Source: Candidatus Heimdallarchaeum endolithica (lineage in GTDB: Archaea; Asgardarchaeota; Heimdallarchaeia; Heimdallarchaeales; Heimdallarchaeaceae). Taken from it: a stretch of 64,000 bases of DNA. This document shows positions 1,393 to 1,747 of this stretch, in pieces; within the stretch, counting starts at the first letter, position 1, and every line of letters starts with the position of its first letter. The stretch lies in contig CP084167.1 of NCBI GenBank assembly GCA_021513715.1, positions 1,600,001-1,664,000 on the forward strand, given 5' to 3'. The position numbers were made by a program, and so were the translations under genes. The notes beneath the pieces were generated by a model. That model was not told the DNA's origin. It did not search any database and saw only the letters and a list, made by a program, of their open reading frames with translations.

Positions 1393-1747
1393 TTACGTAA
1401 TTTCTTCAGGACTCTCCCCAACCAATCAACAAACTTAGCGAAAGTTGTGAAGACTGGATTAAGAGAACATGAAAGACACAGTCTTAATTAAGTTCTCTAA
1501 GGGGTTCATCTCCTTATCCCGGGCACTCATAACTCCCAAAGGGAAGACCGGGTGTCGTAGGAGTGAAACCTACGTCTTTAAGCATATAGCTCAAGACACT
1601 AGATAAATTAGAATTAAATATATAAAGATAGCTGAAAAGTTGTGACACTCCCTAATATCGTGTATGTATTCTTTATTTTTGCAAATGTGTTTCAGGTTGT
1701 TATTGGTCTGATAACTCCACAAACTAAAAATTTAGTTTATTACGTAA
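1393..1747. mobile_element. Non-autonomous non-coding insertion (~340 bp) flanked by the 8-bp palindromic direct repeat TTACGTAA
   Basis: TTACGTAA occurs at 1393-1400 and 1740-1747. The insert interrupts FG-GAP coding sequence, has no ORF in the track and no terminal inverted repeats, and has a subterminal hairpin AAACTAAA/TTTAGTTT at 1721-1738. Confidence 0.65.
1405..1600 (-). ncRNA. Putative structured RNA (~200 nt, multi-hairpin plus H-type pseudoknot) inside the insertion; strand tentative
   Basis: Stems at 1574-1597, 1556-1561/1569-1574, 1518-1522/1548-1552 (enclosing 1534-1544), 1498-1504/1510-1516 and 1432-1436/1442-1446. Interleaved 7-bp stems 1450-1456/1479-1485 and 1462-1468/1492-1498. 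50 of 100 bases are GC in 1501-1600. TATA-like TTTATATA lies on the minus strand at 1626-1619. Confidence 0.5.

Follow-up and report, generated by a model that had tools for sequence, protein, structure and literature searches.

What is a few-hundred-base-pair sequence without any gene of its own doing inside a coding sequence of an Asgard archaeon, and what put it there? The question arises from a stretch of 64,000 nucleotides (the window) of Candidatus Heimdallarchaeum endolithica, the genome under study (G000), where it is located within one 3,326,783-bp contig; the comparisons below draw on the complete genome of a sister species of the same genus (G001), among others. A preliminary description of the window had recognized an ORF-less insertion in coding sequence. 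It had interpreted this as a mobile element that is non-autonomous and specifies, behind a TATA box of its own, a structured RNA of ~200 nt on the minus strand, and it had listed omega-RNA among its candidates. These proposals have been borne out: the RNA is a homolog of TnpB omega-RNAs. The circular Heimdallarchaeum genomes were reported by Wu et al., who counted repeats and transposases; a text search finds TnpB absent from the text of that paper (PMC8813620).

Ends, copies and target of the mini-element

The element, here called family A, occupies 381 bp (positions 1380 to 1760 of the window, including an AT core at both ends) and runs from left to right on the minus strand. The family A copies have these limits in common: in BLAST searches against G000 and in the alignment of the copies, homology stops at AT 1380-1381 and at AT 1759-1760. 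The boundaries suggested earlier (1393-1747, or alternatively 1385-1743) have to be given up, and because they were wrong, so is the circle junction proposed with them. The two TTACGTAA copies at 1393-1400 and 1740-1747 do exist, as do the hairpin at 1721-1738 and the inverted repeat at 1387-1404, but the motifs, which had been read as a target duplication, are subterminal in the copy alignment, 11 nt inside the AT cores. Nor are terminal inverted repeats lacking, as had been stated: the ends form an imperfect inverted repeat of 23 nt (78%), in the same register at both ends. The left end (1721-1760, minus strand) comprises the AT core at 1759-1760, a T-tract with the TTACGTAA motif, and the small hairpin at 1721-1738; the right end (1380-1404, minus strand) comprises the hairpin at 1387-1404, with TTACGTAA in its loop, followed by AACUC and the AT core at 1380-1381. 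The family A element contains no ORF, and no transposase gene was found in any of these elements.

BLAST recovers 16 near-full matches in G000 (86-100% identity), to which are added two copies with diverged left ends, for a full total of ~18, and ~7 truncated ones. The covariance model of the RNA (R1, described below) gives 11 matches in G001, and a pattern scan of metagenomes found a near-identical copy once. One family A copy lies at the start of the only Y1 tnpA match in G000 (925120-925884; L039, L049), part of an IS605-type tnpA-tnpB element. In G001 (L019:1503-1700), a family C TnpB element interrupts a family A copy at an AT within it.

The G001 ortholog of the locus, 98-99% identical there, lacks the element. 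Empty sites of families A and B hold a single AT (most clearly at L011, L017, L125, and L162), and the flanks of a G001 copy, when joined over one AT, give the matching empty site in G000. Since such joins reproduce the empty sites and the G001 ortholog is element-free, (C)AT(G) is the target, and no duplication extends past AT. The family A element is mobile, inserts at (C)AT(G), and leaves one AT at each end. The preliminary description had named a single copy, a lack of covariation, and presence in intact homologous genes as grounds for abandoning it; the element is multi-copy, covarying, and absent from the intact ortholog. The base before the left-end AT is C in all 16 copies scored (15% in the background), and the same base is found in the G001 empty site. 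Together with the AT core, this target C forms the predicted TAM, 5'-CAT-3' (1759-1761, minus strand), the activity of which is putative.

Another question concerns what happened to the host gene. In G001 it is a single open frame of no fewer than 621 codons, in which three sites matter here: CATG, GATG, and CATG. Compared with this arrangement, the 614 bp between the first two sites are inverted in G000, ~155 bp before the third site are missing, and the element lies between. The window accordingly contains an N-terminal piece (404-765, plus strand), the inverted middle of this repeat protein gene (766-1379, minus strand; FG-GAP-like by eye, with the ~155 bp that come next in G001 missing), and a C-terminal piece (1759-2615, plus strand) that is 99% identical to G001. 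The flanks are not those of one simply interrupted gene, as had been assumed, for the left flank is inverted. The reciprocal inversion joint (AT, 764-765) reads flank-AT-flank, without element sequence, and both parental sites in G001 carry AT. Two short-read unitigs from separate runs match positions 701-1407 without mismatch, which rules out a long-read assembly error. The simplest path, which takes its order of events from one outgroup, would be an insertion followed by a single deletion and a single inversion, with AT as the point of exchange in both. The N-terminal piece also stops at 692-694, where the G000 allele (404-694) has TGA and G001 has TGG, which suggests decay after the disruption. 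Elsewhere, a family B insertion in G001 (L129) coincides with the loss of ~718 bp kept in G000 (3293028-3293745), possibly a second adjacent deletion.

The RNA and its TnpB relatives

The minus-strand TATA box noted in the preliminary description can be read in the sequence as an archaeal one (TTTATATA, 1626-1619); it precedes the first stem of the RNA by ~27-29 nt. Its core is retained in most divergent copies, and comparable spacing is found in homologous cassettes elsewhere; judged from the sequence, it would drive a minus-strand RNA from ~1598. A sigma-70 promoter scan was set aside as not applicable to archaea. The predicted omega-RNA scaffold (1380-1598, minus strand, ~219 nt) begins with a 5' hairpin that corresponds to the last tnpB codons (LSxWL) of relatives. 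The Rfam check suggested for it gave no matching family at E values up to 5, and single-sequence folding is only modestly stable (z of -2.2 for the minus and -2.4 for the plus strand). Comparison of the copies is more informative: 18% of columns vary in the RNA vs 37% in the spacer, and variability is 0.036 in paired vs 0.099 in unpaired columns. Among 20 copies, pairing is preserved on the minus strand through changes that tolerate G-U (20 G-U vs 10 A-C types, p ~0.05), and the covariation score is reached by 3 of 500 shuffles; these statistics are supportive only and overstate the case, because the copies are kin. An IscB/HEARO-type RNA on the plus strand was ruled out by the G-U bias and the tnpB linkage.

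Does the RNA contain a pseudoknot? An H-type structure had been proposed from two interleaved helices, AAGACTG/CAGTCTT and AGAGAAC/GTTCTCT. Both exist (1450-1456/1479-1485 and 1462-1468/1492-1498), and an interleaved 7-bp pair of this kind occurs in 12 of 1000 dinucleotide shuffles; however, one pair of the second helix (92% paired overall) is disrupted in 7 of 20 copies, and two hairpins that themselves covary compete with this helix. A better-supported pseudoknot is that between the loop AUGAGU (1525-1530, minus strand) and the 3'-terminal ACUCAU (1380-1385), a predicted end pseudoknot of the TnpB type. This pairing holds in 97.5% of cells across 20 copies and is maintained throughout the clade, and the family B equivalent, AUGAUU/AAUCAU, represents a compensatory change. 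Omega-RNAs are reported to have such a loop-to-3'-end pseudoknot in general (10.1101/2023.11.20.567912).

By analogy with TnpB systems, the guide would be the flank past the right end (1360-1379, minus strand, with the length assumed). This flank is different in every copy, and a search of the guides against G000 gave chance-quality matches only, with no convincing second target. The predicted guide of the copy at 1380-1760, which is the post-inversion one, also matches the unrearranged allele behind CAT; what consequence this might have is a matter of speculation.

The evidence that identifies the RNA comes from its homologs. R1 has matches in 14 of the 30 genomes of the family (Heimdallarchaeaceae) and in none of the 52 other genomes of the class that were searched. 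The matches either overlap the end of a tnpB of ~490 aa or lie in cassettes consisting of left end, TATA box, and RNA. With filters off, R1 aligns over its full length with the RNAs of TnpB families in G000, at 35 bits for B1, 15 for D, and 12 for B2. As R1 RNA lies at tnpB 3' ends in relatives and in G000, the element is read as a stand-alone TnpB omega-RNA, and we hold with high confidence that it is a mobile omega-RNA cassette.

Structure comparison gives the TnpB clade a Cas12f/TnpB-like fold. The clade keeps D, ExxTS, and D, and a Gly-Tyr/Phe-Pro replaces the RuvC-II glutamate. For a rearranged RuvC site of this sort, activity has been demonstrated in other TnpBs and in Fanzors (PMC10530073), with which the clade shares Gly/Pro for the RuvC-II glutamate and the downstream ExxTS glutamate; unlike in those proteins, RuvC-I is DLG. 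The TnpB tree, a quick and unfinished search with long branches, is read for clades only. Which TnpB, then, would the RNA serve? Family A RNA is closest in sequence to the tnpB lineage typified by L079, and neither complete genome contains a tnpB gene of this type. The resident TnpBs of families B and D are ~43% identical to the L079-type protein, and their RNAs have no sequence-level similarity to family A RNA. Given this absence and this dissimilarity, the cassette may be orphaned; the chances that family A is still paired with a TnpB in G000 appear evenly balanced, and action of its RNA in trans with such a protein is a candidate function.

More distant relatives were found in Thorarchaea, and none of the B-family TnpB in viral contigs. 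The thorarchaeal proteins are 33-38% identical and their loci end in a GTTCACTCA motif, which has been reported for the aCas1-linked Asgard TnpBs Cas1H-Asgard-1/-2 (PMC10691335) and is close to the AACTCAT end of family A. Unlike family A, these loci have a large divergent partner ORF, a putative aCas1, and do not keep the AT core. The ORF (1,400-1,570 aa) lies upstream, head to head with tnpB (L131-L163); it has no Pfam match, contains a PD-(D/E)XK-like stretch, and possibly marks the aCas1-type loci of the literature. It has no match in G000. Strong Pfam matches to Cas1 look CRISPR-linked (checked in part; a diverged aCas1 could be missed). Clustering of the neighbors of 73 tnpB loci yielded only this ORF and a HerA-like gene, which is also chromosomal in G000. 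One TnpB subclade (L107, L116, L120, L122, and L156) is found repeatedly downstream of the HerA-like gene; its leader is long and structured, it lacks a clear left end, and it is possibly domesticated.

Mode of movement and candidate enzymes

How does an element that encodes no protein move? Comparison with G001 reveals three AT joints at the locus, one of them reciprocal and element-free, and four copies with different flanks are cut at one shared internal CATG. In the light of established mechanisms, these joints and cuts point to a conservative recombinase with a palindromic 2-bp core; they would be hard to obtain by DDE or Y1 chemistry. Conservative recombination at a 2-bp core is probably what moves the element.

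The usual enzymes are missing. IS607 TnpA was not found in either complete genome, the IS110 transposase (PF02371) has no match in G000 or G001, and IS630 (PF13358) has none in five element-carrying genomes, neither complete genome being positive. There is no Y1 transposase match in G001, which has the element, and no tyrosine recombinase (PF00589) in G001, G002, or G006, all of them carriers. PF00589 is absent from complete G001 and about half of the family, with no clear XerA. What each complete genome does have is two serine recombinases, and only two, of ~240 aa, with the catalytic domain first, the catalytic Ser kept, and a shortened large-serine-recombinase domain. In G000 the two are encoded on the minus strand, at 317450-316731 and 406097-405351. 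Both score far below the NF033518 cut-off, and one has Bxb1 integrase as its best match in structure. At the cut-off used, they occur in 23 of 25 genomes of the family vs none of 225 other genomes of the phylum, a restriction that represents one lineage and not independent evidence. No copy, distant and extra ones included, adjoins tnpB or lies inside AT-core ends; one found 2.3 kb from a partial copy was rejected as part of the same parent element, since host genes intervene. By elimination and shared distribution, the two chromosomal serine recombinases are the best candidates for the movers, although we place this at somewhat less than even. The conserved pair could have a role in chromosome resolution. 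A search for a dif-like host site (two abutted half-sites) gave one weak single-copy candidate overlapping a gene start, which was treated as chance.

Family A is not alone in its ends: AT plus T-tract geometry is common to families A, B1, B2, C, D, and E. A transposase is carried by none of them. B1, B2, and D are TnpB-only elements of the rearranged clade. Family C encodes a canonical-clade TnpB (445 aa) and keeps the AT geometry in five other genomes of the family; it also has an RNA-only cassette of ~365 bp with the same design (L059, G000 396405-396760, and five near-identical copies). Family E (G000 597977-599492) is a single-copy TnpB-only element with AT-core ends, whose protein of 424 aa is of the EESYTS type and 43% identical to an IS607-linked TnpB of another genome. 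Did three unrelated TnpB lineages and their RNA-only derivatives converge on one symmetric AT-core end, all moved by the chromosomal serine recombinases? We entertain this as a rather doubtful possibility. IS607 elements whose left ends start with ACCGT and whose TnpB is unusual are present elsewhere in the same family (L192-L199, L205); none were found in the two Heimdallarchaeum genomes.

Taken as a whole, the likely explanation is an omega-RNA element that stands alone, is non-autonomous, and belongs to a family of TnpB transposons. It would have originated by deletion of tnpB, with the promoter ending up directly ahead of the RNA. The TATA-driven RNA would read through the right end into the flank, which becomes the guide, and a TnpB acting in trans (that of family B or D, or a lost cognate) would, once the element has been excised, cut CAT plus flank at the empty site; the element would then be restored by repair from a second copy of the chromosome. 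Such guide-directed preservation is proposed by analogy with the TnpB systems of IS605 and IS607. Movement would proceed by IS607-like 2-bp-core recombination through a circle, with an enzyme encoded outside the element. Given the palindromic AT and the symmetric ends, adjacent inversions and deletions would be made by this enzyme as well.

The same element and RNA could instead be moved by a visitor, an IS607-type TnpA or another recombinase arriving on a virus, a plasmid, or a lost parent. HTH-first TnpA genes of IS607 elements are indeed present in other genomes of the family, the family E TnpB is 43% identical to an IS607-linked one, and the chromosomal serine recombinases resemble fixed host genes. 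However, the IS607 left ends of this family start with ACCGT and are without AT geometry, no IS607 TnpA recurs as a neighbor among the 73 TnpB-clade loci, and such a gene is missing from both complete genomes in spite of recent species-specific insertions in each. A visiting enzyme is a tenable second choice, a little behind the resident pair. It may also be that the RNA is a passenger whose cognate TnpB is gone, spreading via the ends only, a view that fits either mode of mobilization and agrees with the missing L079-type tnpB and the lack of a convincing second guide target in G000. The RNA region is nevertheless about half as variable as the spacer in recent copies, its changes tend to keep pairing, and structurally matching TnpB families are abundant in G000, so that we find a mere passenger unlikely, if by no means far-fetched.

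A MITE mobilized by a DDE transposase, with AT duplicated within CATG much as TA is by IS630, is improbable. The imperfect inverted repeats would suit it, DDE-linked TnpB elements do have inverted ends (PMC10691335), and at simple insertions a 2-bp duplication and a 2-bp core look the same. Yet a clean flank-to-flank AT joint and repeated joints from flank to internal CATG are not readily made by DDE enzymes; the multi-copy DDE elements of G000 have ends unrelated to the AT-core ones, and IS630-like elements are distinguished by a transposase that is unmatched in all five element-carrying genomes. Subterminal hairpins and the inversion adjoining the element would suit an IS200/IS605 derivative or an IS110 bridge-RNA element, both raised in the preliminary description, but these derivations now seem very improbable. 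The ends are not at TTAC/TTCAA: IS200/IS605 elements have a target motif on the left only and a right end TCAA, whereas family A has AT at both junctions and a right end AACTC-AT, and the sister genome carries the element without a Y1 transposase. For IS110/IS1111, the DEDD recombinase gene is unmatched in either complete genome, and the RNA maps to tnpB 3' ends.

Relation to known systems and significance

Stand-alone omega-RNAs of OMEGA systems are already known (PMC10691335), and family A is like them in being a mobilized RNA cassette without effector or transposase, with effector-bearing relatives in the genome and a flank-derived guide. Unlike them, it has its own TATA box at the RNA start and symmetric AT-core ends; its RNA family is absent from Rfam, and its action in trans is predicted only. 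With IS607 elements (IS607, IS1535, ISC1926, and CboIStron; PMC6188088, 10.1101/2023.11.20.567912) it shares a 2-bp core that stands at each junction and once in the empty site, the TnpB/omega-RNA at the right end, a TAM that includes the core, and the loop-to-3'-end pseudoknot. In contrast to IS607, the core is palindromic AT and not the GG of most members; inverted repeats sharing one register form the ends, in place of unrelated termini without TIRs; no TnpA, which in IS607 has an N-terminal HTH, is found in any family A copy or either complete genome; and an inversion and a deletion adjoin the element at this locus. Family A works like an IS607 derivative and yet differs from IS607 in core, ends, and TnpA.

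New here are the RNA family and its link to a TnpB clade, along with junctions that speak for conservative AT-core recombination and a specific enzyme as candidate. The result is an undescribed omega-RNA family from an Asgard archaeon, for which CAT is the predicted TAM and for which the boundaries of the RNA and candidate nucleases are given. It also raises a question: how are TnpB elements that have no transposase moved in two complete genomes without any of the usual partners? The palindromic 2-bp core, the symmetric ends, and the captured inversion and deletion make the resident serine recombinases directly testable. Should host serine recombinases move all of these families, they would define a class of transposons that rely on a borrowed host recombinase, can enter CATG in either orientation, and cause inversions or deletions of neighboring DNA. 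The recombinases themselves would then be integrases of small size and low specificity, from which genome rearrangements in this lineage arise.
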